Positions 29,769 to 47,400 of a DNA stretch of 64,000 nt are shown here, one piece after another (position 1 is the stretch's first letter; every line of letters starts with the position of its first letter). The stretch covers positions 3,328,689 through 3,392,688 of the forward strand of contig CBDEUD010000003.1 in NCBI GenBank assembly GCA_965243115.1. Direction: 5' to 3'. The position numbers and the translations under genes are program-made. The DNA is from Gammaproteobacteria bacterium. GTDB lineage: Bacteria > Pseudomonadota > Gammaproteobacteria > Eutrophobiales > Eutrophobiaceae. Under the pieces are notes generated by a model. The model was not told where the DNA came from, made no database searches, and saw only the letters and a list, made by a program, of their open reading frames with translations.

Positions 29769-29789
29769 GTGTTGTGCAATAATCCTGCA

Positions 29790-30818: not shown

Positions 30819-31554
30819 AACAACCCCCAAGGCGTTTCTCCCAGGCCACCTGGTTGCGGCGGGCATCCTGGATAAACGGCGAGAGGCGGATCAGCCACAG
30901 AACCATACGGTTGACCAGCGATGCGGGAAATCTCAGCGGCCGCATCACGTCGAGAAACAGCACCACCCGCCTGCCCTGCGTATTGTTCTCCACGCGATGC
31001 TTGTAGGTGTCGTCGAAAACGATGCAGCGGCCCTCTTCCCAGGTACTTGGCTCACCGCCCACTTCTATCCAGCAGTTTTCCTGCGGCTCCGGCACCAGCA
31101 AGGCCAGGTGGCAGCGCAGCAGGCCGCGGTAGGGCCCGCGGTGCAAGGGTATGTGCTTGCCGGGCGCCAGCACGGAAAAAAACGCCGTGTACATGCCCGG
31201 TATCGCCTCGATGATACGCGTCGTTTCCGGGCAAGCCCGGCAGTTGCCCTCCATCTTGTAACCGTAGCCGTAGAGGAACCAGGACTTCCATTTATCGTCC
31301 GTGGTGATGTTGGCCTGGTCGCGCGAGATGTCCTGAAAATTCGGGATGCGCTCCGGGTTCTCCAGCACCCGGTCCAGTTCGGCGCGGATCGACCGCCAGT
31401 TGCCTTCCAGCAGATCCACCCAGGCAAATGCCGCAGGTTCCAGGAACGGCGTGTCGCCGACCGCGGAATACCTGATCAGGAACCGCTCCAGCCGCTTGAT
31501 AATCCACAGTCCCAGCGCCACGCTGGTGCGGTGTTTTTTCTTCCCTGCCGCCAT
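30817..31554 (-). CDS. Aspartyl/asparaginyl beta-hydroxylase family dioxygenase (LpxO-like)
   Basis: APGKHIPLHRGPYRGLLRCHLALLVP and FDDTYKHRVENNT, typical of the Asp/Asn beta-hydroxylase fold. Confidence 0.75.
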   Translation of the reverse strand: MAAGKKKHRTSVALGLWIIKRLERFLIRYSAVGDTPFLEPAAFAWVDLLEGNWRSIRAELDRVLENPERIPNFQDISRDQANITTDDKWKSWFLYGYGYKMEGNCRACPETTRIIEAIPGMYTAFFSVLAPGKHIPLHRGPYRGLLRCHLALLVPEPQENCWIEVGGEPSTWEEGRCIVFDDTYKHRVENNTQGRRVVLFLDVMRPLRFPASLVNRMVLWLIRLSPFIQDARRNQVAWEKRLGGC

Positions 31555-31555
31555 G

Positions 31556-32509: not shown

Positions 32510-33670
32510 TCAGGTAAAGATCTTCAGCGCCAGCCTGTTGTGCCGGGTTCCGGGGCCGACCGCCGACAGCCAGCCCACCAGCGGCCCCCGGTCCTGCCGC
32601 GCCTTCCAGGCCATGCCCAGCCTCAGCAGCAGGAACAGGGTGGAGATGACATGCCAGGCGACCACCAGTACCAGGCCCGTGTCCGGCCGCCCCGCCAGCA
32701 GGGCGGCAGTCAGGATCAGCAGGTTGGGATTGCGCCGCGCGGTGATCAGCCTGGTCAGCGAATCGACCGGCTCCCACATGAAAATCGAGAAACCGGCAAG
32801 GTAATGCTGGAACACCCCTTCACAGAGCCGGCCGCCCAGGTACGCGGCGAGCATCAGCGCCATCAACAGCGCCAACGGCGTTGCCCCCGGCGTTGCAACG
32901 GCCAGCCCCACCCCCCAGGCGAGGTACCAGAACGGCGGATGCACCAGGTCCAGGCCGTGGTCCAGCAGGTCGCCGAAACGGCTCGAGGTCAAGGTCACCC
33001 GGGCCAGCTTGCCGTCCACGGTATCCAGGAAGGTCATGAACCAGCCCAGCAACAGGCCGGCGGCGAACTCACCCAGCCAGAAGGCATAGCCGGCCAGGAT
33101 TGCCAGCAGCAGGCTGAACAGGGTCACGTGGTTCGGCTTCAGTTGAAGCCGGGTGCAGGCTTTGGTCGCCCATCTCGCGGGCACGGGCCAGACCCACTTG
33201 GTCACCAGGTCGGTCACGCCCTTGTAGGAACCGCTGAACAACTCCCGTTCCAGCAGCGCCCGGTTGTCGGGCAGAATGCGCCAGACCCTGGCCGGCTCAT
33301 ATTTCTTCAGCCTGTCGTTGTAGGGGTTTACCAGGTCGTCGACGGCCAGCCTCGTCAAACTGTCCGGGTACCGGTCGCGATCGAATATGTCTGCGTCATA
33401 GTCGTGCGTGCGCACCGCAATTGCGCAAGCATCGTCCTGCGCGTGCAGCACGAAGCCGTTGTCCATGGCGGTGACAGCTTGCAACACGCGCACATCGAAC
33501 AGGTAATCGCCGCGCAGGAAGATCACCGGCGCGCCGGGAGGCAACCCGGCCGCGCCGGTAATGACGCGGACGCCGCCGATTCTCGCCAGCATGCGGGCCA
33601 GTCTCGTGCGTCCGGTCATTCCCCAGATTTCCGTCCGGCTGTCACCGATTATCTGAACGTACGAATTCAT
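32510..33670 (-). CDS. CDP-alcohol phosphatidyltransferase with an N-terminal extra domain
   Basis: DTVDGKLARVTLTSSRFGDLLDHGLD matches D(x2)DG(x2)AR...G(x3)D(x3)D, and the C-terminal half is multi-TM. Start re-picked at MNSYVQIIGD. Confidence 0.8.
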   Translation of the reverse strand: MNSYVQIIGDSRTEIWGMTGRTRLARMLARIGGVRVITGAAGLPPGAPVIFLRGDYLFDVRVLQAVTAMDNGFVLHAQDDACAIAVRTHDYDADIFDRDRYPDSLTRLAVDDLVNPYNDRLKKYEPARVWRILPDNRALLERELFSGSYKGVTDLVTKWVWPVPARWATKACTRLQLKPNHVTLFSLLLAILAGYAFWLGEFAAGLLLGWFMTFLDTVDGKLARVTLTSSRFGDLLDHGLDLVHPPFWYLAWGVGLAVATPGATPLALLMALMLAAYLGGRLCEGVFQHYLAGFSIFMWEPVDSLTRLITARRNPNLLILTAALLAGRPDTGLVLVVAWHVISTLFLLLRLGMAWKARQDRGPLVGWLSAVGPGTRHNRLALKIFT

Positions 33671-33742
33671 CGATAGTTGTTCCCGGTTCCCGCTATCTGT
33701 TTGCCGGTTTTTTGTTACTATAAACCGGCGACTGGAAACCAG

Positions 33743-34645
33743 ATGAGTAAAAGCTTGAAAATAGCGCACATTTCCGACCCCCACCTGTCATCGCTTGAGC
33801 GCATCAGGCCGGAAGAACTGCTGAACAAGCGTATTCTCGGTTACCTCTCATGGAGGTTTAAACGGCGCCGGTCCCACAGCAGGGAAATGCTGTCCCGGAC
33901 TCTTGCCGACCTGGCCGGGCGGCAACCCGACCACCTGGTCATCAGCGGGGACTTCACTCACCTGGGCACGGCAAACGAATGCCGGGAGACCGAAACCTGG
34001 TTAAACAGTATTGGCGGGCCTGATTATATCTCAATTGTGCCGGGGAATCATGACCATTACATAGCCGCCGAATTTGCCGAAACCACCGGGCGCTGGCTTG
34101 CCTACATGCGCAGCGACCCGGGTGAGGACGGCAACGCCGGCGGCTTCCCTTACCTGCGGGTGCGCGGCCCCGTCGCGCTCATCGGTCTTTCCAGCGCCGT
34201 CCCCACCGCGCCGTTCCTGGCGTCGGGCAAACTGGGCGACGGGCAGTTGCAGCGGCTGCGCGCCCTGCTCGAAACAACCGCACAACGGGGCCTGTTCCGC
34301 ATCGTGGTACTGCACCACGGTCCCCAATCCTCCAGCTTCCGGCGCGGGCTGACCGATGCGGACCGGCTGCTGTCGATCCTGTCGTCAGCCGGCGCCGAGC
34401 TGCTGCTACATGGGCACGGACATTGCCAGGTACACAGCGCGCTCCAGGCCGGCGCCGACACGATCCCGGTGTTCGGGGTGCCGTCCGCATCGGGCAATTA
34501 CACGGACCCGATCAAAAAAGCCGGCTACAACATCTACCAGGTAGATAAACACGCCGGCGGCTGGCAGGCCCGCGCCGGGTCGTTCATCCTCAACGGGGAA
34601 ACGCAGCAATTCGAGCAGGTGCTGGATAAGGAAATCCGGCCCTAA
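33743..34645 (+). CDS. Calcineurin-like metallophosphoesterase
   Basis: HISDPHL, SGDFTHLG, PGNHDHY, LHHGP and HGHGH motifs. Start re-picked at MSKSLKIAH. Confidence 0.8.
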   Translation: MSKSLKIAHISDPHLSSLERIRPEELLNKRILGYLSWRFKRRRSHSREMLSRTLADLAGRQPDHLVISGDFTHLGTANECRETETWLNSIGGPDYISIVPGNHDHYIAAEFAETTGRWLAYMRSDPGEDGNAGGFPYLRVRGPVALIGLSSAVPTAPFLASGKLGDGQLQRLRALLETTAQRGLFRIVVLHHGPQSSSFRRGLTDADRLLSILSSAGAELLLHGHGHCQVHSALQAGADTIPVFGVPSASGNYTDPIKKAGYNIYQVDKHAGGWQARAGSFILNGETQQFEQVLDKEIRP

Positions 34646-35706
34646 GCCACCCGCTGCAGCCACAGGCTGCCGATCAGCATCAGGAACAGGCCGGGGGCCA
34701 GCGCCACCAGGGCATGGTTCAGGTTCAGCAATAACCCGGCGTTGGAAAAGATCTGGTCGAGCAGGTAGACACAGATCCCCGTAATACCCGCCAGTACCAG
34801 GCGCGTGCCGATACCCGTGCGTATCGATCCGAACACAAAAGGCACCGACAGCAACAGCATGGCAAGCATGATCAGGCCGGCGCCGAACTTTCTCCAGTAG
34901 GCCAGGGATATCTCATCGTGCTGCTGCCCGGTTTTCTTCAGGTACAGGATATGGTGGTATAAATCCGTCGGCGACAGGCTCTCGGCCGGCCGCGTCAGTG
35001 TTGCGACCTGTTCGGAACTCAAGAAAGGAACCCAGTCCATGCGCGCAGCAGCCGTGGTGCTCAACCGGGCGCCGTCGAACTCCTTCACGGTGACGTCGTG
35101 CAGGTTCCACCGGGCATTGCTGATGATGTCCGCACCCTGCGCATGGATATGCCGGTCGAGCAATCCCTGCTCATCCAGCGTGAATATTTCCACGTCCTCC
35201 ACGTAGGCGGCGCGAATCGCCTCGCCAAGCCGCAACACCCGGTTTCCATCGCGCGTCCAGATGCCCAGGTCCTCGCCCAGCTCCGCGCTCTGGTTCAAGG
35301 CTTCCAGCCGGTGGGCGATGGCCTTGCTCTGCGTATACGGCGCGGCAAACTGCTCCAGCAACGCCAGCAGCAGCAACAGGCACAGGCCGACTTTGAATGA
35401 AGCCAGGCTGATTCTTGCAGCAGACAACCCGGCGGCGCGCATCGCGGTGATCTCCGAACTCAGCGCCAGCAGGCCCAGCGCGATCACGTTGCCGATCAGC
35501 GCGATGAACGGCAGCAGCTGGATCAGCCTCCTGGGCAGCAGCAACAGGACGATGTAAAACGCATCCTGCATGCGGTAAAAACCTTCGCCGATATCGTCCA
35601 TCTGGTCGATCAGGTCGAAGAAGCTGAACAGCGGCAACAGCACTGCGGCCGCGATCAGCAACCCCACGCTGATGCGCTGCATCAGGTAATTTTCGACGAT
35701 GATCAT
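34642..35706 (-). CDS. lptG: LPS export ABC transporter permease LptG
   Basis: YjgP/YjgQ permease pattern with LSSEITAMRAAGLS; it follows lptF. Confidence 0.85.
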   Translation of the reverse strand: MIIVENYLMQRISVGLLIAAAVLLPLFSFFDLIDQMDDIGEGFYRMQDAFYIVLLLLPRRLIQLLPFIALIGNVIALGLLALSSEITAMRAAGLSAARISLASFKVGLCLLLLLALLEQFAAPYTQSKAIAHRLEALNQSAELGEDLGIWTRDGNRVLRLGEAIRAAYVEDVEIFTLDEQGLLDRHIHAQGADIISNARWNLHDVTVKEFDGARLSTTAAARMDWVPFLSSEQVATLTRPAESLSPTDLYHHILYLKKTGQQHDEISLAYWRKFGAGLIMLAMLLLSVPFVFGSIRTGIGTRLVLAGITGICVYLLDQIFSNAGLLLNLNHALVALAPGLFLMLIGSLWLQRVA

Positions 35707-35739
35707 GAGCGCTGTCCGCCTCCCGCTGCCGGTCTGCCG

Positions 35740-36819
35740 TCAGCGAAATGCCTGCAGGAGACGCCGGGTAAAGCGCCGGAACAGGGACAGGAAAACCACC
35801 AGTGCCATCAACACGTGCAACCACCAGACACCGGGGATCTCGTCCATTACACCCTGCTCCACCCAGGTCTGGGCAACACCGCTCAGGTTGTAGTAGACGG
35901 CAAATATCAGCGCCGCCATGAATACTCTCTCATTCTTTCCCTGCCGGGGAGACGAACGGCTCAGGGGAATGGCAATCAGCGCGAGCAGGAGCGTGGCAAC
36001 GGGCCTGGACAAGCGCCACTGGACTTCCGCAATGTCCTCCGGACTGCTGGACTTGAGCAAGGCAGGGGTCACAGCAGCCTTGCGCTTGTAGCCGATGCTC
36101 ACCTCCGGGTCTTCATGGTACCTGACCAGCTTTTCATAGCGCACGACCTCATCCTCCTGCGCGGCGCGCTGCAGCCTGTAGACCAGCCCGTTGTTGAGGG
36201 AAACCCGCAAGCGCCCGTCCTCCAGATCCTGGTCCTGCCTGGCGTTAATCGCCGCGGTGACCTCGCTGACATCCCCCTTGCGGGTGTAATAGAACACCTT
36301 CGTCATCTCACCGCTGCCCGCGTCCTTGTCGTCGATAAAAATAACCGTGCCGGAGTCTTCGTTGCCGTAGAACCGGCCCGCTTGAAAGCGGTCGGTATTC
36401 AGGTCGGCCCGGGCCGTGGCATCCAGCAGATAACTGTTCTGGTACGCCCAGGGGCGGCCGTACAGGGACAACGCGCCCACGAGCAGGGCAATGGGTATGG
36501 AGATGACGATAACCGGACCGATGATGCGCTTGGTGCCGGCCCCGGCGGCGCTCAGCGCCACTATCTCGCGGTCCCGGTACAGCCTGCCCAGCCCGATCAC
36601 GACGGACGTATAAAGGGCAATGGGTACCAGCACTTCCAGGGCGATTATCGTCTTGAGCAGGATCAGTTTGACCATGAAATAGACGCCCAGGGTCTCCGTC
36701 ACCGCTTCAGCCAGGTACCGGGCGCCGCTGAAACAGGCAAACAGGGCGACCAGGATGATTAGGACGAAACTGAAAGGCCTGAGAATTTCGCGAATGATGT
36801 AGCGTTCAATATGTGACAT
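35740..36819 (-). CDS. lptF: LPS export ABC transporter permease LptF
   Basis: IERYIIREILRPF N-terminus and REIVALSAAGAG. YjgP/YjgQ family. Confidence 0.85.
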   Translation of the reverse strand: MSHIERYIIREILRPFSFVLIILVALFACFSGARYLAEAVTETLGVYFMVKLILLKTIIALEVLVPIALYTSVVIGLGRLYRDREIVALSAAGAGTKRIIGPVIVISIPIALLVGALSLYGRPWAYQNSYLLDATARADLNTDRFQAGRFYGNEDSGTVIFIDDKDAGSGEMTKVFYYTRKGDVSEVTAAINARQDQDLEDGRLRVSLNNGLVYRLQRAAQEDEVVRYEKLVRYHEDPEVSIGYKRKAAVTPALLKSSSPEDIAEVQWRLSRPVATLLLALIAIPLSRSSPRQGKNERVFMAALIFAVYYNLSGVAQTWVEQGVMDEIPGVWWLHVLMALVVFLSLFRRFTRRLLQAFR

Positions 36820-36964
36820 GCGGCATCGTTTGTTTCCGGACCACCGGCAACCAATAACCGGCGGCCGGCAACCAGTCAGGAACTGCTGATTTGATTGTAT
36901 TATAAATTACTTTAAACTGCTCACCTCTCGTACGGTATTATCCGGTAAGGTAAATCAGAAGTTC

Positions 36965-37693
36965 ATGGTTAACGCGATTATATTGAGCGCGGGTCAGGGC
37001 AAAAGACTGCTGCCCCTGACCGAGGAATGCCCCAAGTGCATGCTGCGCGTGGCAGGCAAAAGCATACTGGAATGGCAGGTGCAGGCATTGCTGGCGGCAC
37101 AAATCGACAAGCTGTTCATCATCACCGGGTTTAATTCGGACCTGGTCGAAGCTCACATACAGGACCGTTTCGGCGCCGAACGGGACCGCATCGACATCGT
37201 CTACAACCCCTTCTACAGCATCTCCGACAACCTGGCGAGTTGCTGGATGGCGCGCCATGCCATGGATGAGGACTTTATCCTGTTGAACGGGGACACGCTG
37301 TTCGAACCGGCGCTGCTGGATACGGTGCTCCGGTCAGAGCCGGCGCCGGTAACCTTGACCGTCGACTTCAAGGACAGCTACGACAACGACGATATGCGCG
37401 TCGAACTGAATGACTTCATGGTGAAATCCGTCAGCAAAACACTGCCGGATGAACATACCAATGCGGAATCCATCGGCCTGCTGTATTTCCGGGGAAAGGG
37501 AACCGCTTTATTCCGCGAGCATCTTGACCGGCAGATGAAGCAGGGAACCGGTTTGCGTTTATGGTTCCTGAGCGTGGTGGATGCGCTGGCCCGGCAATCC
37601 CTGGTGCGGGCTTGCAGCATAAACGGGCACCGGTGGTGTGAGATCGACTTTAAGAGGGATCTGGAGAATGCTGAATCCGTCTTTCTCACTTAA
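36965..37693 (+). CDS. Sugar/alcohol-phosphate nucleotidyl(cytidylyl)transferase (LicC/IspD-like fold)
   Basis: AIILSAGQGKRLLPLT (GxGxRxxPxT-type loop) and ILLNGDTLF. Confidence 0.7.
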   Translation: MVNAIILSAGQGKRLLPLTEECPKCMLRVAGKSILEWQVQALLAAQIDKLFIITGFNSDLVEAHIQDRFGAERDRIDIVYNPFYSISDNLASCWMARHAMDEDFILLNGDTLFEPALLDTVLRSEPAPVTLTVDFKDSYDNDDMRVELNDFMVKSVSKTLPDEHTNAESIGLLYFRGKGTALFREHLDRQMKQGTGLRLWFLSVVDALARQSLVRACSINGHRWCEIDFKRDLENAESVFLT

Positions 37694-37716
37694 GTTGAAT
37701 GTGATAAGCATCGAGC

Positions 37717-37890
37717 AGGGTGGGATGGTATTTTAAGGACCCGCTGTAAATACATCCCTGTACGTTCATTGCGCCCATCCCTGGGCGCAACCCTTCGGGC
37801 GGCTAACGCCGTGCAAATCGGCTGTCCTGCCGATTTGTTACCGTCAGCCATCCCTGGCTGACGATAGTCCTTAAAATACCATCCCACCCT
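37717..37890 (-). ncRNA. Candidate structured RNA E1: a 24-bp outer stem enclosing four hairpins with GGA-containing loops
   Basis: The arms 37717-37740 and 37867-37890 are perfect reverse complements. Minus-strand hairpins are CAGCCA-GGGA-UGGCUG, CAAAUCGGC-AGGACA-GCCGAUUUG, GCGCCCA-GGGA-UGGGCGC and UACA-GGGA-UGUA. The structure is certain; transcription and function are not shown. Confidence 0.45.
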
Positions 37891-37937
37891 CCAGATCGTG
37901 AACAATGCTGACGATTTTGGATAAGCGTCCCGACAGC

Positions 37938-38741
37938 TCAGTCGTAGCGACCTCCCAGAATCTTTTCCGCCAGTTCCAGGTCTGCTGGTGTGTCTACATC
38001 AATGCCTGCATGGGCAAATGGAATTTCGATAAAATCCACCGTGATGCCGGTAGCTTTATTAACAGCCTCCCGGGTCTGCTGCAGGCTCAGGCGGCCGCAG
38101 GCATAGCGCACCAGCGCGGCGAAGCCGAATAAACTGAGGGCCATGCGCCAGGGTTGTTTACGGTGTGCCTGTGCCCGTTGCCACAAGGAGATGATGTCCC
38201 TGGCGCGGGCGCCGTCGAGCGCGTACAGGTTACAACCGCAATATGCGCCTTCGGAAAACTTCAGCACCGTGCGCCGCACCCCGGGGTACGCCGCCTCGAT
38301 CCGGCCGTAATCCACCAGTGCTACGTTGACGTCAGCTTTGTTGTCGACCGCCCTGTCCAGAAAACAATTCAATATCGCATCGTCCAGCAGCGCATGGTCC
38401 GCGGTCGTGATCAGGACGAGCGAGGCGGGATCGATCCTTGCCAGGCCGGCCTGCACACTACCGCTGAGGCTGTCAGAGGCGGGAATCCAGGTGGCAGTGT
38501 CCTGGTTGACGAATGCCTGTAACTGCGGGTAACTCTCAACCGCGTCAGGGCCGGGGCCGCATAGTACGAATGAATCGATGCGAGCGCTCGCCTGCAGCGC
38601 CTCCAGCACGCGGATGATCATCGGTACGCCCGCGAGCGGCGCCAGTGCCTTGCACGGGACGCCGGAAAGCTGCGCGACCTCGTCAACGCCGCCGCGCTCC
38701 CCGGCCAGCAGCAGTGCGGTGATGTTCCGCTTATGCGCCAT
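37938..38741 (-). CDS. MobA-like NTP transferase family protein
   Basis: ALLLAGERGG...CKALAPLAGVPMI and a C-terminal GIDVDTPADLELAE, typical of the NTP_transf_3 fold. Confidence 0.65.
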   Translation of the reverse strand: MAHKRNITALLLAGERGGVDEVAQLSGVPCKALAPLAGVPMIIRVLEALQASARIDSFVLCGPGPDAVESYPQLQAFVNQDTATWIPASDSLSGSVQAGLARIDPASLVLITTADHALLDDAILNCFLDRAVDNKADVNVALVDYGRIEAAYPGVRRTVLKFSEGAYCGCNLYALDGARARDIISLWQRAQAHRKQPWRMALSLFGFAALVRYACGRLSLQQTREAVNKATGITVDFIEIPFAHAGIDVDTPADLELAEKILGGRYD

Positions 38742-38787
38742 GCCGGCGCCGGCGGTTCACTGTGATGAAGGGAGAAAAAGTCATATT

Positions 38788-39960
38788 TTACAAATGCTTC
38801 CGGTAGATCCGGTATGTCTTGTACAGCTTGCTGCCGATGCGCTCCAGGATGCTGCGCATACCCTGGTTGTCGTCCAGGATCCATGACATCTCCACGCCTG
38901 TTATCCCCCTGGCGATGACCGGCTCCCTGAGGTCGTGGATAACCAGCAGCGCCAGGGCGATGCCCAGCGGGGTATTGCGCAATTCCTTCCGGACGCCCAT
39001 CAGCGGTATCCGGCCGGTCGTGATGCGCCGTGCGCGCAACGCCCTGATGATTTTAAACAGGCCGAACGGGAATAAACTGCCGTCCAGTTCGGGCAGTACT
39101 TCATTCAGGTTAGGCAGGATGGCGATAAATGCAACCGGCTCCCCCCGGTATTCCGCAATGCGGATAAAATCATCCGGCACGAACAGCCGCAAGGCGGTGC
39201 CCAGTTCGGCGAATTCCTCCCTGGTGAACGGGACAAACCCCCAGTTGTCCGACCAGGCGTCATTGAAAATAGCGCGTAAGGTCTCCAGTTCCTGCTTGAA
39301 TTTCTTCCGGTTCAATCCCCGCAACCTGACGGAATTGCCGAACCTGTCCACCAGTTTCTGCATGACCCGGGGGATGTCGAAGTCGGGTCTGATCCAGTAG
39401 GCATACAGGTCTTTCGCGGCAGCATAACCCTGTTGTTCCAGCAATTGCGCGTACCATGGATGATTGTGGGGCATCAGTATCGCCGGCGGCGCGTCGAAGC
39501 CGTCCACCAGCAGGCCGCATTCCTGGTTGATGGAAAAATTGAAGGGGCCCGTGACCTCTTCGGTTTCATGCTGCGCCAGCCAGCGCTCGCTTTGCGCCAC
39601 CAGGGCGCGCATCACGTCCGGGTCGTTTTCACACTCGAGGAAGCCGAAATGGCCGGACTTCACGCCACAGTGGCGGCGGTGCAGGTCATCGACCTGGGCG
39701 CTGATCCGGCCCACCGGCCGCTCGCCCCGCCAGGCAATCCAGCCCTGCCAGCGGCCGTGGGCAAAATACGGATTCAGGGAGGAGAAATGCATCCTGCGTT
39801 CCAGCTTCAGGGGCGGCACCCAGTGCGGGTCCTGCGCGTACAGGCTCCAGGGCAGGCGGATAAACGCGGCCAGGTGGCGCCCGTTACTCACCGGCACGAC
39901 CCGGAGCCCGTCATCCGAATTCCGCTCCTGCCCGGAAAAGAGTTTTGATCTAATTTGCAT
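38788..39960 (-). CDS. Large GNAT-fold acyltransferase; candidate bacterial ceramide synthase by context
   Basis: 390-aa protein of a conserved N-acyltransferase family (FNDAWSDNWGFVPFT...), next to the spt/ACP/ligase/SDR genes. The functional call is an inference. Confidence 0.5.
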   Translation of the reverse strand: MQIRSKLFSGQERNSDDGLRVVPVSNGRHLAAFIRLPWSLYAQDPHWVPPLKLERRMHFSSLNPYFAHGRWQGWIAWRGERPVGRISAQVDDLHRRHCGVKSGHFGFLECENDPDVMRALVAQSERWLAQHETEEVTGPFNFSINQECGLLVDGFDAPPAILMPHNHPWYAQLLEQQGYAAAKDLYAYWIRPDFDIPRVMQKLVDRFGNSVRLRGLNRKKFKQELETLRAIFNDAWSDNWGFVPFTREEFAELGTALRLFVPDDFIRIAEYRGEPVAFIAILPNLNEVLPELDGSLFPFGLFKIIRALRARRITTGRIPLMGVRKELRNTPLGIALALLVIHDLREPVIARGITGVEMSWILDDNQGMRSILERIGSKLYKTYRIYRKHL

Positions 39961-40007
39961 TATCGTTTAACATACAAAGACTTATCATCCGATCGGCGAA
40001 ACTGGAT

Positions 40008-40454
40008 ATGTCTTCAAACATCCTGAACGATACGATGTTGAAATTCGGGGCGCCTGATACCACCATCCATACTTACTCCACCTGGTTGGTATTATTGCGC
40101 CCCGCCCAGGTCACGCTGGGTTCCCTGGTGCTGGCCGCGCGCGCGCCGGCAACCGCATTTTCGCAACTGGGCCCGGCCTGTTTCAGCGAACTGGCCCAGG
40201 TTACCCGTGATGTCGACACGGTATTATCGCATCTTTTTCATTATGATAAACTGAACTACCTGATGTTGATGATGGTCGATCCGCACGTCCATTTTCACGT
40301 GATACCCCGCTATTCGGAAATTCGCCGTTATGCGGGGGTGGAATTTTCGGATTCTGCCTGGCCGGGGCCGCCGGATCTGGGGCATAGCAACCCTGTCGAC
40401 AAGAAAGCCTTTAATCAATTACGGGATGAACTGAGGGCGTCGTGGCCGGCATAG
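40008..40454 (+). CDS. HIT (histidine triad) family protein
   Basis: VDPHVHFHVIPRY contains the HxHxHxx triad. Confidence 0.7.
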   Translation: MSSNILNDTMLKFGAPDTTIHTYSTWLVLLRPAQVTLGSLVLAARAPATAFSQLGPACFSELAQVTRDVDTVLSHLFHYDKLNYLMLMMVDPHVHFHVIPRYSEIRRYAGVEFSDSAWPGPPDLGHSNPVDKKAFNQLRDELRASWPA

Positions 40455-40678
40455 GCGGCTTGCATAAAAAAATGTTGGAAGTTTTCCTCATGTTATGTAA
40501 TAGTTGTCGCCTTAGACGCTCTAAATATATACAATGGCCGCATTTTATGTTTATAATTCGTTTGTGGAAATAACATGTTAGGTGTCCTATGCTTACTGGA
40601 GGGCACTGTTTTAGGCCAAAAAAATAAATCTGCCTTTGTCAACTGGCGTACAAAGAACCAGACGGGGGTTTATTCATC

Positions 40679-42430
40679 GTGAATCGAGAAGCGACGACCA
40701 CTGATAATACAGTAGCCCAAAATTTAGCCGAATTCTCCAGTCTGTCTGAAGCGTTGGATTATGCGGCTGCGGGTAGTACCGGGTGCAATTTTTACGACGC
40801 GAAAGGTAAGCTCAGCGTCGTTTTGCCTTATGGCGAATTGCAGCGACAGGCCAGGGTTGCCGCCGGGCGCCTGCTCAGCCTGGATTTGAAACGCGGTGAT
40901 CACATTGCCCTGGTGGCCGATACCCACCCTGACTTCATTATCCTGTTCTTTGCCTGCCAGTACATCGGGCTTGTGCCGTTCGCCATGCCGATACCGCTTA
41001 ATCTCGGCAGCCACGCGATTTACGTCCAGCAACTCAAGGGCCTGCTGACCAGCGGCAAGGCAAAAGTAGCCATCGCGCATAAGGAATTCATCAGCTTTCT
41101 CGAGGAAGCCGCGGCCGACAACGACGACCTCGAATGGCTCGGCACACCGGAACAACTGTCCGATATTGCCCCTTCGGAACGCCCGCTCGAGCCGAGCAGG
41201 CCCGAAGAGCCGGCATACCTGCAGTTTACCTCGGGCAGCACCCGCGCACCGCAGGGCGTAGTCATTACCGGCAAGGCGGTAATGAGCAACCTGCAAGGGA
41301 TCACGAGGACCGGACTGAAAGTACACGAGGGCGACCGCTGCGCATCCTGGCTGCCGTTCTACCACGATATGGGCCTGGTCGGGTTCGTGCTGGGTCCGGT
41401 TGCCTCCCAGTTGTCGGTCGACTACCTGCGCACGCGGGATTTTGCCATACGTCCGCTGCAGTGGCTGCGCCTGATCAGCAGGAACCGCTGCACCATTGCG
41501 TTCTCGCCACCGTTCGGTTACGAACTCTGCGCCCGCAGGATCCGCAGCGCGGACCTGCAACAGCTTGACCTGAGCTGCTGGCGTATCGCCGGCATCGGCG
41601 CGGAGATGCTGCGCTCCAGCACATTCGAAGCGTTTGCCGCAACCATGGCCGAAACCGGTTTCAGCTCCAACGCATTCCTGCCCTGCTACGGCCTGGCGGA
41701 AGCATCGCTTGCCGCGACCTTTTCGGAACTGGACCGCGGCCTGGACGTCATGGCGGTCGACGCCCTGACCATGGCCGAACGCGGTATCGCGGTGCGCGTC
41801 CGGTCGGACAGCCGCAAGGTAAACGAAATCGTCAATTGCGGACGCGCCCTGCCCGATCACGAGATCAGGATCGTCGATAACGAAGGGGAGATCCTGCCCG
41901 ACCTGCGCCTCGGCCGGGTACTGGTAAAAGGCCCCAGCCTGATGCACGGCTACCTCAACGACCAGGAGTCGACAGACCGGGTGATGCTGGAAAACGGCTG
42001 GCTCGACACCGGCGACCTGGGCTACCTGTTCGCGCAGAACCTCTACCTGACCGGACGGCGCAAGGACATCATCATCGTCAACGGCAGGAACATCCGCGCC
42101 CAGGACCTCGAAGAGATCGCCGAAGGCATGGACGGCATCAGGATGGGCGAATCTTCCGCATTCGATATCGAAACCGACGAAGGCGGGCAAATCGTCGTAC
42201 TGGTGGTCGAATGCCGTCTCACGGAGAGCACGGCCAGGCAATCGCTGGTCAAGCACCTGCAGCGCAAAGTCTACGAAGGCTTCGGGATTTACTGCTACGT
42301 AGACCTGGTCGAGCCGCACACCCTGCCGCGCACCTCGTCCGGCAAGCTGTCCCGCGTCGCCGCGCGCAAGGGCTTCACGGACCGGGTAGACCTGGCCCAC
42401 GCCATCACTTCACAAGCTGAAACCGCGTAA
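40679..42430 (+). CDS. Fatty acyl-AMP ligase / acyl-ACP synthetase (adenylate-forming superfamily)
   Basis: LQFTSGSTRAPQGV (AMP motif I), YGLAEA, GDLGY and SSGKLSR. GTG start after a 224-bp AT-rich gap. Confidence 0.85.
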   Translation: MNREATTTDNTVAQNLAEFSSLSEALDYAAAGSTGCNFYDAKGKLSVVLPYGELQRQARVAAGRLLSLDLKRGDHIALVADTHPDFIILFFACQYIGLVPFAMPIPLNLGSHAIYVQQLKGLLTSGKAKVAIAHKEFISFLEEAAADNDDLEWLGTPEQLSDIAPSERPLEPSRPEEPAYLQFTSGSTRAPQGVVITGKAVMSNLQGITRTGLKVHEGDRCASWLPFYHDMGLVGFVLGPVASQLSVDYLRTRDFAIRPLQWLRLISRNRCTIAFSPPFGYELCARRIRSADLQQLDLSCWRIAGIGAEMLRSSTFEAFAATMAETGFSSNAFLPCYGLAEASLAATFSELDRGLDVMAVDALTMAERGIAVRVRSDSRKVNEIVNCGRALPDHEIRIVDNEGEILPDLRLGRVLVKGPSLMHGYLNDQESTDRVMLENGWLDTGDLGYLFAQNLYLTGRRKDIIIVNGRNIRAQDLEEIAEGMDGIRMGESSAFDIETDEGGQIVVLVVECRLTESTARQSLVKHLQRKVYEGFGIYCYVDLVEPHTLPRTSSGKLSRVAARKGFTDRVDLAHAITSQAETA

Positions 42431-42468
42431 CATCAAGCCGGTTACCCGCCCGGGAAATCTGCACTGAA

Positions 42469-43377
42469 ATGACGGAGCAGGTGGCGCTCACCGGCGCCAC
42501 GGGATTTATCGGACAGAACCTCCTGGCCGCACTGGAAAAATCAGGTTACCGCACCCGCGCACTGACCCGCAGGCCGCGTCCCGGTTCCGGACCCGTATCC
42601 TGGATCCACGGCGACCTGGATAACCCGCAAGCCCTGGACAAACTCGTCGACGGATGCACAGCCGTGATCCACTGCGCCGGCACGGTCAGGGGAAACTCAC
42701 TAAATGACTTCCTGGAAATCAACCTGAAGGGAACCGAAAACCTGCTGGAAGCGGCCGCTAAACCGGCCTCCCCGCCCAGGTTCCTGTTACTCTCCTCACT
42801 CGCCGCCAGGTACCCCGACTATTCCTGGTATTCCCGCAGCAAATCCATGGCGGAAGCACTGCTGATGTCGGACAAATACACCGGAATGTCCCGCACCATA
42901 TACCGCCCCAGCGCGGTCTACGGCCCCGGCGACAGGGAAATGCGCCCCCTGTTCCGCCTCATGCGCCGCGGTTACCTGGTCGGACCCCGCATACCCGGCA
43001 ACAGGATCAGCCTCATCCACGTCGACGACCTGGTACGCGCCATCCTGCAATGGCTGCCGGCAAAACAGGCACAAGGCACCTTCGAACTGGACGACGGCGC
43101 CACACAAGGATACACATGGGAAGACATCACGGCCATCGCTTCCGACACCTGGCAGCGCCCCGTAACCCACATCCGGGTCCCGGTCACATTGCTGAGAGGC
43201 ATTGCCCACGTCAACCTGCTCCTGGCCCAGACGTTCCGTTACCGGGCGATGCTCACCCCCGGAAAAGTTAACGAAATCACCCACGAAAACTGGGTATGCG
43301 ATAATACGCCGTTGACGAACTGCCTGGGATGGAAACCGGAAATTAGTCTGTCTGATTCAATCAAGACAGTTATATAA
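42469..43377 (+). CDS. NAD(P)-dependent SDR (epimerase/dehydratase fold; CerR-like by context)
   Basis: LTGATGFIGQNL and YSRSK (YxxxK). Confidence 0.7.
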   Translation: MTEQVALTGATGFIGQNLLAALEKSGYRTRALTRRPRPGSGPVSWIHGDLDNPQALDKLVDGCTAVIHCAGTVRGNSLNDFLEINLKGTENLLEAAAKPASPPRFLLLSSLAARYPDYSWYSRSKSMAEALLMSDKYTGMSRTIYRPSAVYGPGDREMRPLFRLMRRGYLVGPRIPGNRISLIHVDDLVRAILQWLPAKQAQGTFELDDGATQGYTWEDITAIASDTWQRPVTHIRVPVTLLRGIAHVNLLLAQTFRYRAMLTPGKVNEITHENWVCDNTPLTNCLGWKPEISLSDSIKTVI

Positions 43378-43391
43378 TAGCGATAGTGCCA

Positions 43392-43498
43392 GACGGCTTC
43401 ATGTAAGCGATTCAGGACTATCATCCGCAGGGAAAGCGGATGGTAAGCGTACATGGACGTATTTACAGCGGGTCCTGAATCGCTTACATGAAGCCGTC
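43392..43498 (+). ncRNA. Candidate structured RNA E2, a short homologue of E1: a 27-bp outer stem around GGA hairpins
   Basis: GACGGCTTCATGTAAGCGATTCAGGAC (43392-43418) is the reverse complement of 43472-43498. Inner hairpin CAUCCGC-AGGGAAA-GCGGAUG. The 3' core CGTACATGGACGTATTTACAGCGGGTCCT is nearly identical to E1 read on the minus strand. Confidence 0.45.
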
Positions 43499-43526
43499 CC
43501 CCCGGAACCATATTGGAGATCGTTGT

Positions 43527-43781
43527 ATGCCCGCTAGCTATGAGGAAATTCTTGAAAAAGTCACCAGTGAGTTGTCAAAGCTTACTCCGTCCGGGGTAGA
43601 GCTAAGCGAAGATTCCGAACTGGTCACGGAACTAGGCCTGGATTCATTCAAAGTCCTGGACCTGCTCATGGACATCGAAGACGAGTTCGACATCTCCATG
43701 CCGGTCAACCTCCTTGCCGACGTGCACACCGTAAAAGACCTGGCTGACCGGATTCATTCCGTAGTCAATTCATCAACCTAG
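43527..43781 (+). CDS. Acyl carrier protein
   Basis: 84 aa with LGLDSFKVLDLLMDIEDEF (phosphopantetheine Ser in a DS motif). Start re-picked at MPASYEEIL. Confidence 0.85.
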   Translation: MPASYEEILEKVTSELSKLTPSGVELSEDSELVTELGLDSFKVLDLLMDIEDEFDISMPVNLLADVHTVKDLADRIHSVVNSST

Positions 43782-43790
43782 CCACCGGAA

Positions 43791-44972
43791 ATGAGCCTGT
43801 TCGACAAATTTCAACCCCTGGCGCAGGACCGCCACACACTGCTGGGCCAGGGAATCGACCCGTTCGGCGCGCCCATCGAAGAGATCTACTCACCGACGGA
43901 AGCCCTCATAAACGGGCGCCGGACGATCCTGGCCGGCACCAACAACTACCTGGGCCTCACCTTCGATGAACAATGCCTGGACGCCGCCCATGCCGCGCTC
44001 GACGAACAGGGCACCGGGACCACCGGATCCAGGATGGCCAACGGCAGCTTCGCCGGGCACCGCGCACTGGAACAGGAGATCGCCGCGTTTTACGAATGCG
44101 ACAAAGCCATCGTGTTCACCACCGGCTACCAGGCAAACCTGGCGGTGATCTCCGGCCTGGCGAACAATGAAGACACCATCGTCATAGACGCGGACAGCCA
44201 TGCCAGCATCTACGACGGCTGCCGCTTGAGCGGCGCGGATATCGTGCGCTTCCGCCACAATAACCCCGACGACCTGCACAAACGGCTGAAACGCCTGGGC
44301 GAGCGCGCCGCGAACGCACTGGTGATTATCGAAGGCATCTACAGCATGCTCGGCGACAAGGCGCGTATCAGGGAGATAATCGAGGTGAAAAACGCCCATC
44401 GCGCACTGTTGCTGGTGGATGAGGCCCACTCCCTGGGTGTCCTGGGGGAACGGGGCAGGGGCCTGGTCGAGGAGGCCGGGGTCATCAGCGAGGCGGATTT
44501 CATCGTCGGCACCTTCAGTAAAAGCCTGGCCAGTACCGGAGGGTATTGCGTCAGCAACCACCCGCAGCTTGATTTCATACGATACGCCAGCAGGCCCTAC
44601 ATCTTCACCGCATCGCCCTGCCCGTCCGTGATCGCTTCCACGCGCCAGGCGCTGAAGCGGGTGGAAAACGGCGCCGACCTGCGCGCCCGGCTGTGGCGCC
44701 ACGCACACCGCCTGTACCGGCACCTGCTCGATGCGGGCTACGAACTGGGGCCCGAACCCTGCCCGGTGATCGCGGCCCTGCTGGACACCCGGGAACAGGC
44801 CCTGGCGCTATGGCGCGGCCTGCATGAACACGGCATCTACGTGAACCTGATCTTCCCGCCGGCCACGCCCGGAGGCAAATCGCTGGTGCGCATCAGCGTC
44901 AGCGCCGCGCACACCGACGAACAAATCGATACGATTTGCCAGGCTTTCTCGGCATTGTCCACATCTATATAA
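43791..44972 (+). CDS. Alpha-oxoamine synthase, serine palmitoyltransferase-like
   Basis: GTTGSRMANGS, DEAHSLGVLG and GTFSKSLAS (PLP Lys). The Spt call over BioF/Kbl rests on the ACP/ligase/SDR context. Confidence 0.75.
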   Translation: MSLFDKFQPLAQDRHTLLGQGIDPFGAPIEEIYSPTEALINGRRTILAGTNNYLGLTFDEQCLDAAHAALDEQGTGTTGSRMANGSFAGHRALEQEIAAFYECDKAIVFTTGYQANLAVISGLANNEDTIVIDADSHASIYDGCRLSGADIVRFRHNNPDDLHKRLKRLGERAANALVIIEGIYSMLGDKARIREIIEVKNAHRALLLVDEAHSLGVLGERGRGLVEEAGVISEADFIVGTFSKSLASTGGYCVSNHPQLDFIRYASRPYIFTASPCPSVIASTRQALKRVENGADLRARLWRHAHRLYRHLLDAGYELGPEPCPVIAALLDTREQALALWRGLHEHGIYVNLIFPPATPGGKSLVRISVSAAHTDEQIDTICQAFSALSTSI

Positions 44973-45041
44973 TTTCGGGCAGGTTGGGATGGCATATATA
45001 CAGTGCCGGAAATTTCTGAACCCCTCTCAAAGACCAGATTA

Positions 45042-46343
45042 ATGGCGGACGACGGCCTGTTCCGCCGGGTTTTCATGAACTCCGCCATGCTCACCGCGGG
45101 CAAGATGTATACCGCCCTGGCCGGCCTGCTCTACCTTGCCCTTGCCACCCGCGCCCTGGGTGCGCATGATTTCGGCGTACTCATCCTCATCCATGCCTAC
45201 GCGGTCGCAGTACGGGATTTTGTCACGCTGAAAACCTCGCAGTGCGTGGTAAGGTACGGCGCCATCTGCCTGGACAACAATGCACGGGCTGATTTTCAGA
45301 AACTGGTCAAATTTACCACGCTGCTCGACCTCGGCTTCTGTGCCGCAGGCACGCTAGTGGGCATGCTGGTCGTCCCCGTAGTCGGGCCGCACTTCGGCGT
45401 CACACCGGAACTGGTTCCTGTCGCAACCATCTACTGCTTCATGATCCTGTTCAACTTCAAGGCAACCTCCCTGGGCCTGCTGCGCCTGTTCAACCGCTTC
45501 GACCTGGTGGCCCTCATGCTCATGGTGGTTCCGACGATCCGCGTGGCCGGCGCCTGTGCCGCGTATTTCTTCTACCAGCACATCAGCGCATTCCTCCTGT
45601 TCTGGTTTCTCGCCGGCGCGGTCCAGTGCCTGGCTACCGTTTACTTCGGCTGGCGCGAATTCAGGCGCCAGGGCTTCAGCAGGGATATGGACCTCGGGCT
45701 CGATAACCTGACCCGGCCGCACGAGGGGATCTGGCCTTTTATCTGGTCTTCACACGTTCACAGGACCCTGCATGTTTCGACCATACACGTCGCAACACTC
45801 GTCGTCGGCTTCCTGCTGGGGCCGGTAGGCGCCGGCCTGTTCAAGATTGCCCAGGAATTCTCGAGCGTATTGCTCAAGCCTGCGCAACTGTTCAACGAGA
45901 CGGTTTACCCGGAAATGGCAAAGATCGCGGTCAGCAGAAACTATACGCGCCTTTGGGGCGTCATCACCCGCACGGCGCTGGTGGCAGGCGCCATTGCCGC
46001 CGTTATCCTGTTGCTGATTTTCCTGTTCGGCCAGTCCCTGTTGGGCCTGTTCTTCGGCGCAGAGTACGGCAACGCCTACGAGGTAATGGTGCTGCTCATG
46101 ATCGCGGCTGCCGTCACCATGGCCACGTTCGCCCTGGACCCGGCGCTGTACTCCATAGGCCGCCCCGATATCTCCATGTATATCCGGATCTTCACCAGCA
46201 CCCTGCATATCGCGGCCATGTTCCTGCTGCTGCCGAACATCGGCCTGGCCGGCGCCGGCATCGCCGCCATTGCCGGCAGCGTGTCAACGGCCCTGCTGCT
46301 GCTGTTCTTTACCCACTCACTGGTAAGAAATAAATCCGCGTGA
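45042..46343 (+). CDS. Wzx/MOP-superfamily flippase-like membrane protein
   Basis: 12-14 hydrophobic segments. N-terminus FRRVFMNSAMLTAGKMYTALAGLLYLALATRALG is typical of polysaccharide/lipid flippases. Confidence 0.7.
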   Translation: MADDGLFRRVFMNSAMLTAGKMYTALAGLLYLALATRALGAHDFGVLILIHAYAVAVRDFVTLKTSQCVVRYGAICLDNNARADFQKLVKFTTLLDLGFCAAGTLVGMLVVPVVGPHFGVTPELVPVATIYCFMILFNFKATSLGLLRLFNRFDLVALMLMVVPTIRVAGACAAYFFYQHISAFLLFWFLAGAVQCLATVYFGWREFRRQGFSRDMDLGLDNLTRPHEGIWPFIWSSHVHRTLHVSTIHVATLVVGFLLGPVGAGLFKIAQEFSSVLLKPAQLFNETVYPEMAKIAVSRNYTRLWGVITRTALVAGAIAAVILLLIFLFGQSLLGLFFGAEYGNAYEVMVLLMIAAAVTMATFALDPALYSIGRPDISMYIRIFTSTLHIAAMFLLLPNIGLAGAGIAAIAGSVSTALLLLFFTHSLVRNKSA

Positions 46344-46382: not shown

Positions 46383-47072
46383 CTATGAATTTCTACGCAA
46401 GGTCGCGGTGATCTCGGCCATGATGGATACGGCGATCTCGGCCGGTGAGCGGGCGCCGATATCCAGTCCCACCGGCGCCTTGAGACGGGCAATCTCGGCC
46501 TCTTCGAACCCGGCCTGCTGCAGGCGTTCGATCCTGGCCGCCTGGGTCTTCCTGCTGCCCAGGGCGCCGATATAAAACGCCGGGGAACGCAGGGCCACCT
46601 GCAGGGCCGGATCATCCAGTTTCGGATCATGGGTCAGGGTAACCAGCGCGCTGCGCGCATCCAGCGCGATGTTCTCCAGGGCGAAATCAGGCCATTCCGT
46701 GTTCAGCGCCACCCCGGGGAAGCGGGCCTCGCTGGCGAACGCCTGCCTGGGGTCCACCACGACCACGTCATAACCACAGGCCAGCGCGTTGCCCGCGAGA
46801 TGCTGGCCGATATGGACGGCGCCGACAATGACCAGGCGCAAGGGCGCGTTGAACGGCTGGATAAAACAGTCCTGCCCGTACAGGTCGGCCCGCAGGCATC
46901 GATCGGTACTCAGGGCGTTCATGGCAAGCTCATGCAACTCCGCTTCCTGCTCATCCACGTGCAGGCCGGGTTCCAGCACGAAGCTGTCACCGGAATCCAG
47001 GTACCTGATCAACACGCAGGGCCTGTTCGCCGCGCGGTTGGCGTTGACCTGTTGCAGTAACCCCCTGCGCAC
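46383..47072 (-). CDS. XdhC/CoxI family accessory protein, Rossmann (C-terminal) half
   Basis: LVIVGAVHIGQHLA and KTQAARIERLQQAGF..IARLKAPVGLDIGA. Confidence 0.75.
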   Translation of the reverse strand: MRRGLLQQVNANRAANRPCVLIRYLDSGDSFVLEPGLHVDEQEAELHELAMNALSTDRCLRADLYGQDCFIQPFNAPLRLVIVGAVHIGQHLAGNALACGYDVVVVDPRQAFASEARFPGVALNTEWPDFALENIALDARSALVTLTHDPKLDDPALQVALRSPAFYIGALGSRKTQAARIERLQQAGFEEAEIARLKAPVGLDIGARSPAEIAVSIMAEITATLRRNS

Positions 47073-47076
47073 GCGC

Positions 47077-47400
47077 CTAGTCCCGGCTTACCGCCTCGAC
47101 GTAGACCTTGATGCGTCCTCCGCAGGCCAGGCCGACCTCCCAGGCCATCTCGTTGGTCACGCCGTATTCCAGCAGGCGCGGCCGGCCGGTCCGGATCACC
47201 TCCTGCGCCTCGCCGATGACGGCGGTTTCCACGCATCCCCCGGAAACCGAACCGATGAAGTTGGTGTGCGCATCCACCACCAACTGGCTGCCGCTGGGAA
47301 CCGGCGCCGAACCCCAGGTTTCAACCACGGTGGCAAGGGCGATATCCCGGCCCTCGTCGAGCCAGTGCTGTGCAGTATTGAGAATGTCCTGGTCCGCCAT
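47077..47400 (-). CDS. XdhC/CoxI family accessory protein, N-terminal half (separate ORF)
   Basis: ALATVVETWGSAPVPSGSQLVV...GSVSGGCVE. Confidence 0.75.
   Translation of the reverse strand: MADQDILNTAQHWLDEGRDIALATVVETWGSAPVPSGSQLVVDAHTNFIGSVSGGCVETAVIGEAQEVIRTGRPRLLEYGVTNEMAWEVGLACGGRIKVYVEAVSRD

Follow-up and report, generated by a model that had tools for sequence, protein, structure and literature searches.

A predicted sphingolipid synthesis and export locus without a ceramide kinase gene in a metagenome-assembled gammaproteobacterial lineage

We have analysed a 64-kb stretch of the gammaproteobacterial contig CBDEUD010000003.1 (the whole of which we refer to as the window), and its genes point, with a probability that we put at about 0.82, to a sphingolipid locus of the 'Rhodobacteria' (alpha-, beta- and gammaproteobacterial) type, in which backbone synthesis, head-group decoration and export would be encoded together. 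The predicted locus extends roughly from 30817 to 46343, about twice the length of the segment at 38788–46343 in which the original prediction had placed a gene set for a ceramide-like lipid. All of the open reading frames (ORFs) that it listed are present where it placed them, and the proposal of a ceramide-like lipid agrees with the gene kit, which is that of Caulobacter (spt, acyl carrier protein (ACP), acyl-ACP synthetase, CerR and bCerS); the segment takes in only about half of the locus, however, with further genes, for the head group and for a hydroxylase, at 30817–38741. Beyond the gene for a 390-aa protein at the start of that segment, and reading away from it, there are two nucleotidyltransferase genes (37938–38741 and 36965–37693), lptF, lptG, and genes for a metallophosphoesterase, a CDP-alcohol transferase, a Tam41-like protein, and the hydroxylase.

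Counterparts of 14 of the 17 Caulobacter crescentus genes CC_1152–CC_1168 are present in the locus, and tblastn comparison with three Caulobacter loci from metagenome-assembled genomes (MAGs) matched ten genes in the published CC_1164 to CC_1152 order (PMC11324152, S1 Text and S2 Table). Four related MAGs (L004, L006, L007, and L008, the last with losses among the head-group genes) share this arrangement, and most of it is retained in L014, a more distant gammaproteobacterial MAG. All eight of the genes tested against L007 are under purifying selection, with ratios of non-synonymous to synonymous substitution rates (dN/dS) of 0.05–0.25, and are therefore maintained by selection.

The alpha-oxoamine synthase with a GTFSKS motif that had been noted at 43791–44972 (plus strand) is present as a 393-aa protein, and its assignment as the serine palmitoyltransferase Spt (the CC_1162 counterpart) holds on sequence comparison. 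It scores 617 bits against the NCBIfam equivalog model NF047599 ('serine palmitoyltransferase', betaproteobacterial type), passing the cut-off of 500, and fails the rival models for BioF (332 bits, cut-off 426) and Kbl (307 bits, cut-off 460). Among solved serine palmitoyltransferases (SPTs) the best match is that of Sphingomonas wittichii (2x8u, 446 bits), followed by those of S. paucimobilis (402 bits) and Sphingobacterium (286 bits); the scores against other solved alpha-oxoamine synthases are 227 bits for Kbl, 191 bits for cysteate-C-fatty acyltransferase, and about 169 bits for BioF. Alignment to 2x8u shows that HASIYDG, DEAHS, and GTFSKS are conserved, as well as the C-terminal arginine of the LxR motif, so that the PLP lysine and the active-site His, Asp, His, and Arg residues are all retained. 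By both models and solved structures, then, the synthase groups with Spt, and not with BioF, Kbl, or a cysteate acyltransferase; grouping with any of these three is what the original prediction had named as evidence against it. An exact-sequence look-up of the protein returned no record.

The other genes of the spt operon, all on the plus strand, had also been called correctly. The putative aasR (40679–42430; the CC_1165 counterpart) encodes a 583-aa fatty acyl-AMP ligase-type acyl-ACP synthetase that scores 797 bits against NF006624 (cut-off 600) and is 47% identical to the ligase of the E. coli BL21 locus; its dN/dS in comparison with L007 is 0.08. The putative cerR (42469–43377; the CC_1164 counterpart) encodes a 302-aa extended short-chain dehydrogenase/reductase (SDR) and candidate 3-keto reductase, with a Pfam Epimerase match (2e-28), the Rossmann motif GATGFIG, and a YSRSK sequence conforming to YxxxK; its identity is 40% with the SDR of E. 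coli B and 32–34% with the syntenic Caulobacter protein. The putative acpR (43527–43781; the CC_1163 counterpart) encodes a dedicated acyl carrier protein of 84 aa with a PP-binding match (5e-11) and the phosphopantetheine serine in LGLDSF, is 50% identical in product to E. coli B AcpR, and ends 9 nt before spt.

The 390-aa product of the minus-strand gene at 38788–39960 is, as judged from synteny, sequence identity, and predicted fold, a tandem-GNAT N-acyltransferase orthologous to Caulobacter bCerS (CC_1154) and E. coli YghO. It has no Pfam or NCBIfam match, and when it was compared with the PDB by sequence and by profile the GNAT matches were marginal at best (E 0.01–0.04). An AlphaFold model made from the single sequence was uninformative (predicted local distance difference test score, pLDDT, of 32), and a model built on 30 homologues reached a pLDDT of 79 and a predicted template modelling score (pTM) of 0.77; comparison of the latter with known structures returned tandem GNAT proteins, with MAB_4324 (7q3a) at E 2e-14, together with glucosamine N-acetyltransferase, MshD, N-myristoyltransferase, and FemX. 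The earlier label of a GNAT-fold acyltransferase was thus correct, and can be sharpened to a tandem GNAT. The comparison with characterised bacterial ceramide synthases that had been called for shows 47% identity to YghO over the full length, and 43% identity over 380 aa (E ~1e-90) to the gene at the CC_1154 position in the three Caulobacter MAG loci, where the match is flanked by counterparts of CC_1153 and CC_1152 on one side and of CC_1157, 1158, 1159, and 1161–1164 on the other. The gene is divergent from the ligase operon and so forms a separate transcription unit.

The family to which this protein belongs is large, with 7086 representatives (50% clustering, E ≤ 1e-3); NCBI names members 'N-acetyltransferase', and a scan of one genome per species gave 567 loci with a bCerS relative. 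The nearest cerS relatives outside the MAG clade are in Nitrosomonas (59% identity), followed by other gammaproteobacterial MAGs; those of Luteibacter, Rhodanobacter, and the Lysobacterales are about 50% identical, and those of Caulobacter 43%.

The backbone functions have been shown in Caulobacter and E. coli B, and are assigned to this locus by homology. In the proposed pathway AasR would adenylate a free fatty acid and load it on the dedicated carrier AcpR, and Spt would condense L-serine with acyl-AcpR to give 3-oxosphinganine (PMC9386255), acyl-AcpR being the preferred acyl donor of the E. coli B Spt (PMC9386255). The tandem-GNAT protein bCerS would attach the N-acyl chain and the SDR CerR would reduce the 3-keto group, yielding a dihydroceramide; which of the two reactions comes first is a matter of dispute (PMC11087976; PMC11324152). 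An acyl chain may be hydroxylated by an OlsC/LpxO-like dioxygenase, and an anionic phospho head group related to the ceramide (di)phosphoglycerate of Caulobacter may be built by the Tam41-like enzyme, the CDP-alcohol phosphotransferase, the metallophosphoesterase, and both nucleotidyltransferases, with a possible part for the HIT protein. A MOP protein would flip the lipid across the inner membrane, and LptF2/LptG2, presumably powered by the housekeeping LptB, would pass it to the Lpt bridge for delivery to the outer membrane.

The six candidate head-group genes are recognisable counterparts of genes in the Caulobacter locus. Next to cerS, on the minus strand, is a gene for a MobA/CofC-like nucleotidyltransferase (37938–38741; NTP_transf_3, 9e-13; 32–35% identity to the syntenic Caulobacter gene, CC_1153), and beyond it, on the plus strand, one for a putative sugar/alcohol-phosphate nucleotidyltransferase (36965–37693; NTP_transferase, 5e-14; 45–46% to CC_1152). 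The metallophosphoesterase gene (33677–34645, plus strand, with a likely start at 33743) has a Metallophos match (5e-12) and is 43% identical to its CC_1158 counterpart. The CDP-alcohol phosphotransferase gene (32510–33784, minus strand, with a likely start at 33670) is the counterpart of CC_1159 (cpgA), to which it is 41–43% identical; the protein has a CDP-OH_P_transf match (4e-8), an N-terminal soluble domain, and three hydrophobic segments. The adjacent Tam41/Mmp37-like nucleotidyltransferase gene (31556–32509, minus strand; Tam41_Mmp37, 1.7e-6) is the counterpart of CC_1161 (cpgC), with 30–31% identity to the syntenic Caulobacter gene and 44–48% identity to those of Nitrosomonas and L014. 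The CC_1152-type nucleotidyltransferase resembles the cytidylyltransferase half of IPCT/DIPPS (NF041135, 1e-16), and since this model matches both the nucleotidyltransferase and the CDP-alcohol transferase, the two proteins resemble the two halves of that bifunctional enzyme. The likeness fits a scheme in which an alcohol phosphate would be activated as its CDP derivative and then transferred to the growing head group.

A HIT-family protein (40008–40454, plus strand; the CC_1157 counterpart) has a Pfam HIT match (7e-5), the motif HVHFHVI, and 41–42% identity to the syntenic Caulobacter protein. The HIT and GNAT genes had both been described as upstream of and divergent from the ligase operon; the HIT protein is real and the GNAT gene is divergent, but the HIT gene is co-directional with the operon. 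At the far end of the locus is a gene for an Fe/2-oxoglutarate lipid hydroxylase of the OlsC/LpxO family (30817–31554, minus strand; Asp_Arg_Hydrox, 2e-52), which scores 253 bits against the OlsC model and 140 bits against the LpxO model, both below cut-off. Homologues lie within 10 kb of cerS in L004, L006–L008, and nine more distant loci, and the enzyme probably acts on an acyl chain of the ceramide.

The head-group genes vary in content among the relatives. L008 (OZ241347.1) has lost the CDP-alcohol transferase, both nucleotidyltransferases, and HIT; from L086 the CDP-alcohol transferase has likewise been lost, and no HIT gene is called there in the interval from cerS to the ligase gene, but both nucleotidyltransferases remain. 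The backbone genes are present in both genomes, as are the Tam41-like gene, the phosphoesterase, the hydroxylase, and lptF2/G2. Judged by gene content, this lineage is evidently changing its head group in the course of evolution.

Two permease genes lie among these head-group genes on the minus strand, an lptF2-type gene at the CC_1156 position (35740–36819; LptF_LptG, 3e-66) and an lptG2-type gene at the CC_1155 position (34642–35706; LptF_LptG, 3e-63). The original prediction took lptFG to be a background neighbour of the ceramide genes; both the bit scores and the position among the head-group genes indicate instead the locus-linked LptF2/LptG2 type. Against LptF2 of the E. coli B locus the window LptF scores 182 bits, compared with 77 bits for the canonical E. 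coli LptF; the window LptG scores 181 bits against LptG2 of that locus, compared with 115 bits for the canonical LptG. In the locus copies of Nitrosomonas, L014, and a Desulfobulbaceae MAG, LptF is likewise closer to the E. coli B locus copy than to the canonical one, and for LptG the margin is smaller (183 versus 166 bits in the Desulfobulbaceae MAG). According to a preprint of 2026, Caulobacter LptF2 and LptG2 can be deleted only in the absence of spt, form a complex, bind the housekeeping LptB, and are needed for sphingolipid transport, and lptF2/lptG2 are found in many alpha- and gammaproteobacterial sphingolipid loci (10.64898/2026.04.12.717747). On the strength of score and position the lptF and lptG genes in the window are probable locus-linked paralogues and belong to the predicted sphingolipid locus.

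The MOP-type flippase that had been proposed to follow spt (45003–46343, plus strand) is a 446-aa polytopic protein with at least ten hydrophobic segments, and can be kept as a candidate. It is CC_1166-like and E. coli YghQ-like, matches NF007773 weakly (1.6e-5), shares 30% identity with the MOP-type protein encoded in the E. coli B locus, and is conserved in L004 and L006–L008.

Several points weigh against reading the region as a sphingolipid synthesis and export locus of this type. The ceramide kinase bCerK is absent from the window (tblastn with the L014 and Caulobacter kinases, E > 1), and was not found in L004, L006–L008, or L086. In tblastn comparisons of the window LptF and LptG with Caulobacter LptF2 and LptG2 there is no alignment of more than 150 residues at E ≤ 1e-3, and the link to the Caulobacter pair is therefore made by way of synteny and the E. 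coli B copies. The LptF2/G2 paralogue call is made from 64 kb of a 3.95-Mb genome, and the MOP assignment on weak family scores. The source lineage is known only as a MAG lineage, its close relatives being MAGs labelled only 'Gammaproteobacteria bacterium', and the production of ceramide is a prediction from the genes.

The absence of the kinase gene can be placed precisely. In Caulobacter, Nitrosomonas, L014, and the Desulfobulbaceae MAG a DAGK_cat ceramide kinase homologue occupies a 1-kb space between the CDP-alcohol transferase and Tam41-like genes, and of the 80 loci examined, 25 have a kinase homologue at no more than 10 kb from cerS. In the window, as also in L004 and L007, the CDP-alcohol transferase and Tam41-like genes abut (32509/32510), and the absence of the gene from L004, L006–L008, and L086 contrasts with L084, L014, L011, and L072. 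A database search seeded with the L084 kinase, the nearest one available, gave none on the chromosome-sized contigs of the clade among the 120 matches listed (to 37% identity), and we note that the CerS and CofD proteins of the clade genomes are present in the database that was searched. The evidence that the clade is without bCerK is good, if not conclusive. The DAGK_cat kinase ORF of L084 is itself without its first ~45 residues and has stop codons upstream, a truncation that could reflect either decay or a long-read indel.

Because bCerK is absent, ceramide phosphoglycerate (CPG) and ceramide diphosphoglycerate (CPG2) should not be assumed to be the products. It is possible, and we hold it as a tentative alternative rather than the favoured one, that exactly these Caulobacter lipids are made, with the kinase encoded elsewhere in the 3.95-Mb genome or replaced by a non-orthologous lipid kinase of the YegS or DgkA type. 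Five of the six CPG/CPG2 genes have counterparts in the locus, and the more distant relative L084 keeps a DAGK_cat gene at the expected position, as such a scheme would lead one to expect; however, the gene is cleanly absent where the CDP-alcohol transferase and Tam41-like genes abut, no homologue appears on the clade's chromosome-sized contigs among the matches listed, and the additional loss of the CDP-alcohol transferase in L008 and L086 suggests that the head-group pathway is being remodelled. In the predicted pathway no kinase is assigned to the first phosphorylation step.

A second alternative, which we regard as improbable, is that lptF and lptG are the housekeeping lipopolysaccharide (LPS) permeases, that the genes near them modify LPS or lipid A, and that the ceramide functions are confined to 38788–46343. 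Both proteins clear the cut-offs of the LptF and LptG equivalog models in NCBIfam, the hydroxylase is a relative of LpxO, and there is an O-antigen cluster 10 kb upstream; but the same models also name the E. coli B locus copies LptF and LptG, and these copies are about twice as similar to the window proteins as are the canonical ones. Moreover, the same genes lie in the same order beside cerS in Caulobacter, Nitrosomonas, P. luteola, and Desulfobulbaceae, and there is no adjoining pepA, unlike the canonical E. coli lptFG, which adjoins that gene. We thus retain the interpretation of the permease pair as part of the sphingolipid locus.

Next to the hydroxylase gene is a cofE-cofD pair (28893–30734, plus strand), which abuts the locus and whose membership in it is doubtful. 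CofE, an F420-0:glutamate ligase, scores 279 bits against TIGR01916 (cut-off 181), and CofD, a 2-phospho-L-lactate transferase, scores 300 bits against TIGR01819 (cut-off 257), both models being NCBIfam equivalogs; neither fbiC nor cofC was found within the 64-kb window. A CofD homologue with 57% identity is encoded in an F420 operon of canonical form (luciferase-like, F420 oxidoreductase, cofE, cofC, fbiC, cofD), and the window pair looks like a cofE-cofC-fbiC-cofD operon that may have lost its middle. The adjacency to the locus is kept down to 61% CofD identity (in L084), and housekeeping neighbours such as 3HCDH (3-hydroxyacyl-CoA dehydrogenase) and gltX are also syntenic across the relatives. 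Because these neighbours are syntenic and L084 keeps the kinase, inherited gene order is the simplest explanation of the adjacency. CofD was considered as a replacement for the missing kinase and rejected as the straightforward reading, since L084 has cofE-cofD beside a locus that still contains a DAGK_cat gene.

There is nonetheless a small chance, and we consider it slimmer than that of housekeeping permeases, that CofD and CofE have been recruited from an F420 operon, because cofC and fbiC are absent from the 64 kb and the F420 phospho-lactyl linkage is chemically like ceramide phosphoglycerate. In such a scheme CofD would act as a phospho-lactyl or phospho-glyceryl transferase and, with the CofC-like nucleotidyltransferase, would put a phosphoglycerate-type group directly on ceramide, with no ceramide-1-phosphate intermediate, and CofE, as a gamma-glutamyl ligase, would possibly glutamylate it. 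If this were so, both the lipid head group and the use made of F420 enzymes would be new.

The least probable alternative, that the synthase is not Spt and the operon makes some other amino-lipid (capnine or a sulfonolipid, a CAI-1-like ketone, or a biotin- or threonine-pathway product), draws on the fold and pyridoxal phosphate (PLP) lysine motif common to all of these enzymes and on weaker matches to each of them, and we set it aside, as only Spt models are passed at their cut-offs, a gap of 200–320 bits separates SPT from Kbl, cysteate acyltransferase, BioF, and CqsA, and the synthase co-occurs with bCerS, CerR, AcpR, and AasR.

With the sphingolipid interpretation in place, the locus can be compared with those described previously. 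The Caulobacter crescentus locus CC_1152–CC_1168 (CCNA_01210–01226; PMC11324152, PMC9386255, PMC9393093) contains the same modules (backbone, phospho head group, Lpt paralogues, flippase, and HIT), and in both cerS is on a transcription unit separate from aasR-cerR-acpR-spt. Unlike Caulobacter, the window is without the ceramide kinase (CC_1160), LptC2 (CC_1168), and a CDP-glycerol-type transferase (CC_1167), and has in addition the OlsC/LpxO-like hydroxylase; the LptF2/G2 sequences are also very divergent. The gammaproteobacterial loci of Pseudomonas luteola (FOB45_16280–16340) and Azotobacter vinelandii (Avin_44240–44370) are contiguous like that in the window (PMC11324152, Fig 7, S2 Table). 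By the tables of PMC11324152, the P. luteola order is matched in both arms, spt-acpR-cerR-aasR-HIT and cerS-1153-1152-lptF2-lptG2-1159-(kinase)-1161, the window having extra genes and no kinase. P. luteola and A. vinelandii keep the kinase and are reported to be without CC_1158 and CC_1166 counterparts, whereas the window shows the opposite, with a phosphoesterase and a MOP protein and no kinase.

The yghO-spt locus of E. coli B/BL21(DE3) (NC_012971, 2989282–2999842) has the same core, with yghO divergent from ligase-SDR-ACP-spt, and as in the window there are an lptG-lptF pair, in E. coli B the second of its genome, and a gene for a MOP-type protein; identities to BL21(DE3) are 47% for YghO, 47% for the ligase, 40% for the SDR, 50% for the ACP, 54% for Spt, 35% for LptF2/G2, and 30% for the MOP protein. 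E. coli B is without Tam41-like, CDP-alcohol transferase, nucleotidyltransferase, phosphoesterase, and HIT genes, and has YtfJ and YghR/S/T-type genes. Among named relatives outside the clade, the genes of Nitrosomonas eutropha (Neut_0458–0461 and Neut_1100–1106) come closest for cerS (59%), for lptF2/G2 (52%), and for head-group functions; unlike in the window, these genes are distributed over three regions and the kinase is included; we note also that the window Spt best fits the betaproteobacterial NCBIfam model.

The five backbone genes are reported to be conserved in alpha-, beta-, and gammaproteobacteria (PMC9386255, PMC11324152), and candidate sphingolipid producers span 40 phyla (PMC11334938). 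The original view that such a locus is notable in a gammaproteobacterium is thus outdated, papers from 2022–2026 having described the kit in beta- and gammaproteobacteria, with the same layout in E. coli BL21(DE3). RefSeq already names the spt of BL21(DE3), and the key enzyme of the window would likewise already be named by NCBI's annotation pipeline. As far as the comparisons go, the gene kit is already known, and only the kinase-less head-group module appears unusual here.

Between the HIT and ligase genes is a conserved AT-rich intergenic region of 224 bp (40455–40678, plus strand), with 38% G+C compared to 59% for the window. It contains a promoter-like site (TATACA-18-TATAAT, 40528–40557) that matches at 10 of 12 positions and would be followed by a probable 5′ leader of ~115 nt; five such promoter-like sites are present in the 900-bp region scanned, compared with 1.2 ± 1.1 in shuffled sequences. 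The region is 96% identical in L004, 80% in L006, 77% in L007, and 64% in L008, and the non-coding DNA is constrained, as it is 77% identical to L007 while the synonymous divergence (dS) of the flanking genes is 0.6–0.9. The size and AT-richness of this gap had been recognised, and a promoter-like site is now evident within it; that the promoter is a regulated one, as had been suggested, is reasonable but unproven. Rfam comparison gave no riboswitch or other family in the 224 bp, RNAalifold on the presumed leader returned a weak consensus (-12 kcal/mol, four sequences), and terminator-like sites are no commoner than in shuffled sequence. A small hairpin (GGUUUAU/GUGAAUC, 40655–40690) lies over the Shine-Dalgarno region and GTG start of the ligase gene, and it is invariant in four relatives, with too little variation to judge. 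At the other end of the locus, the AT-rich gap that separates the convergent cofD and hydroxylase genes (30726–30818) is filled by a perfect inverted repeat of 24 nt (AGTTTTTAGTTTCTGGTTTTTAGT) with a spacer of 45 nt, which gives spurious miRNA-like Rfam matches on both strands and may be either a bidirectional terminator or a small repeat element.

The remainder of the window contains several other features. A large O-antigen/polysaccharide cluster (5629–22514) includes a Polysacc_synt_2 dehydratase, glycosyltransferases, a Wzy-like ligase/polymerase, a Wzx-like flippase, a DegT aminotransferase, two UDP-sugar dehydrogenases, and epimerases. At 22698–24833 and 54384–59174 there are genes for two RTX proteins of secreted type, each with a serralysin C-terminal domain, the second being 1596 aa in length and also containing FG-GAP repeats. 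An AbiEii-family toxin gene (52903–54165) lies directly downstream of a tRNA-Arg(CCT) gene, with a Pol-beta-type nucleotidyltransferase/MarR-like ORF (59483–60178) further on, and the two may be part of a small integrated island. Following the MOP gene, XdhC is encoded at 46383–47400 as two ORFs 4 nt apart, one of 107 aa for the XdhC_CoxI domain and one of 229 aa for the XdhC_C Rossmann domain, which is either a natural split or a frameshift. At positions 1–2000, where the G+C content is 65%, GC skew is very strongly negative (-0.44 and -0.30), like that over the minus-strand RTX gene at 55–57 kb, and from this likeness a Gly-rich gene may extend past the edge of the window.

These observations add an uncultured gammaproteobacterial lineage to the likely producers of sphingolipids, and the window provides a compact and complete example of a locus combining backbone, head-group, and LptF2/G2 export genes. 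There may be something new to learn from a single point, that the kinase gene has been cleanly lost while the rest of the head-group machinery remains under purifying selection. Identifying the ceramide head group of this clade would provide a test of the current model for ceramide phosphoglycerate synthesis, in which the enzyme order is unsettled (PMC11324152).

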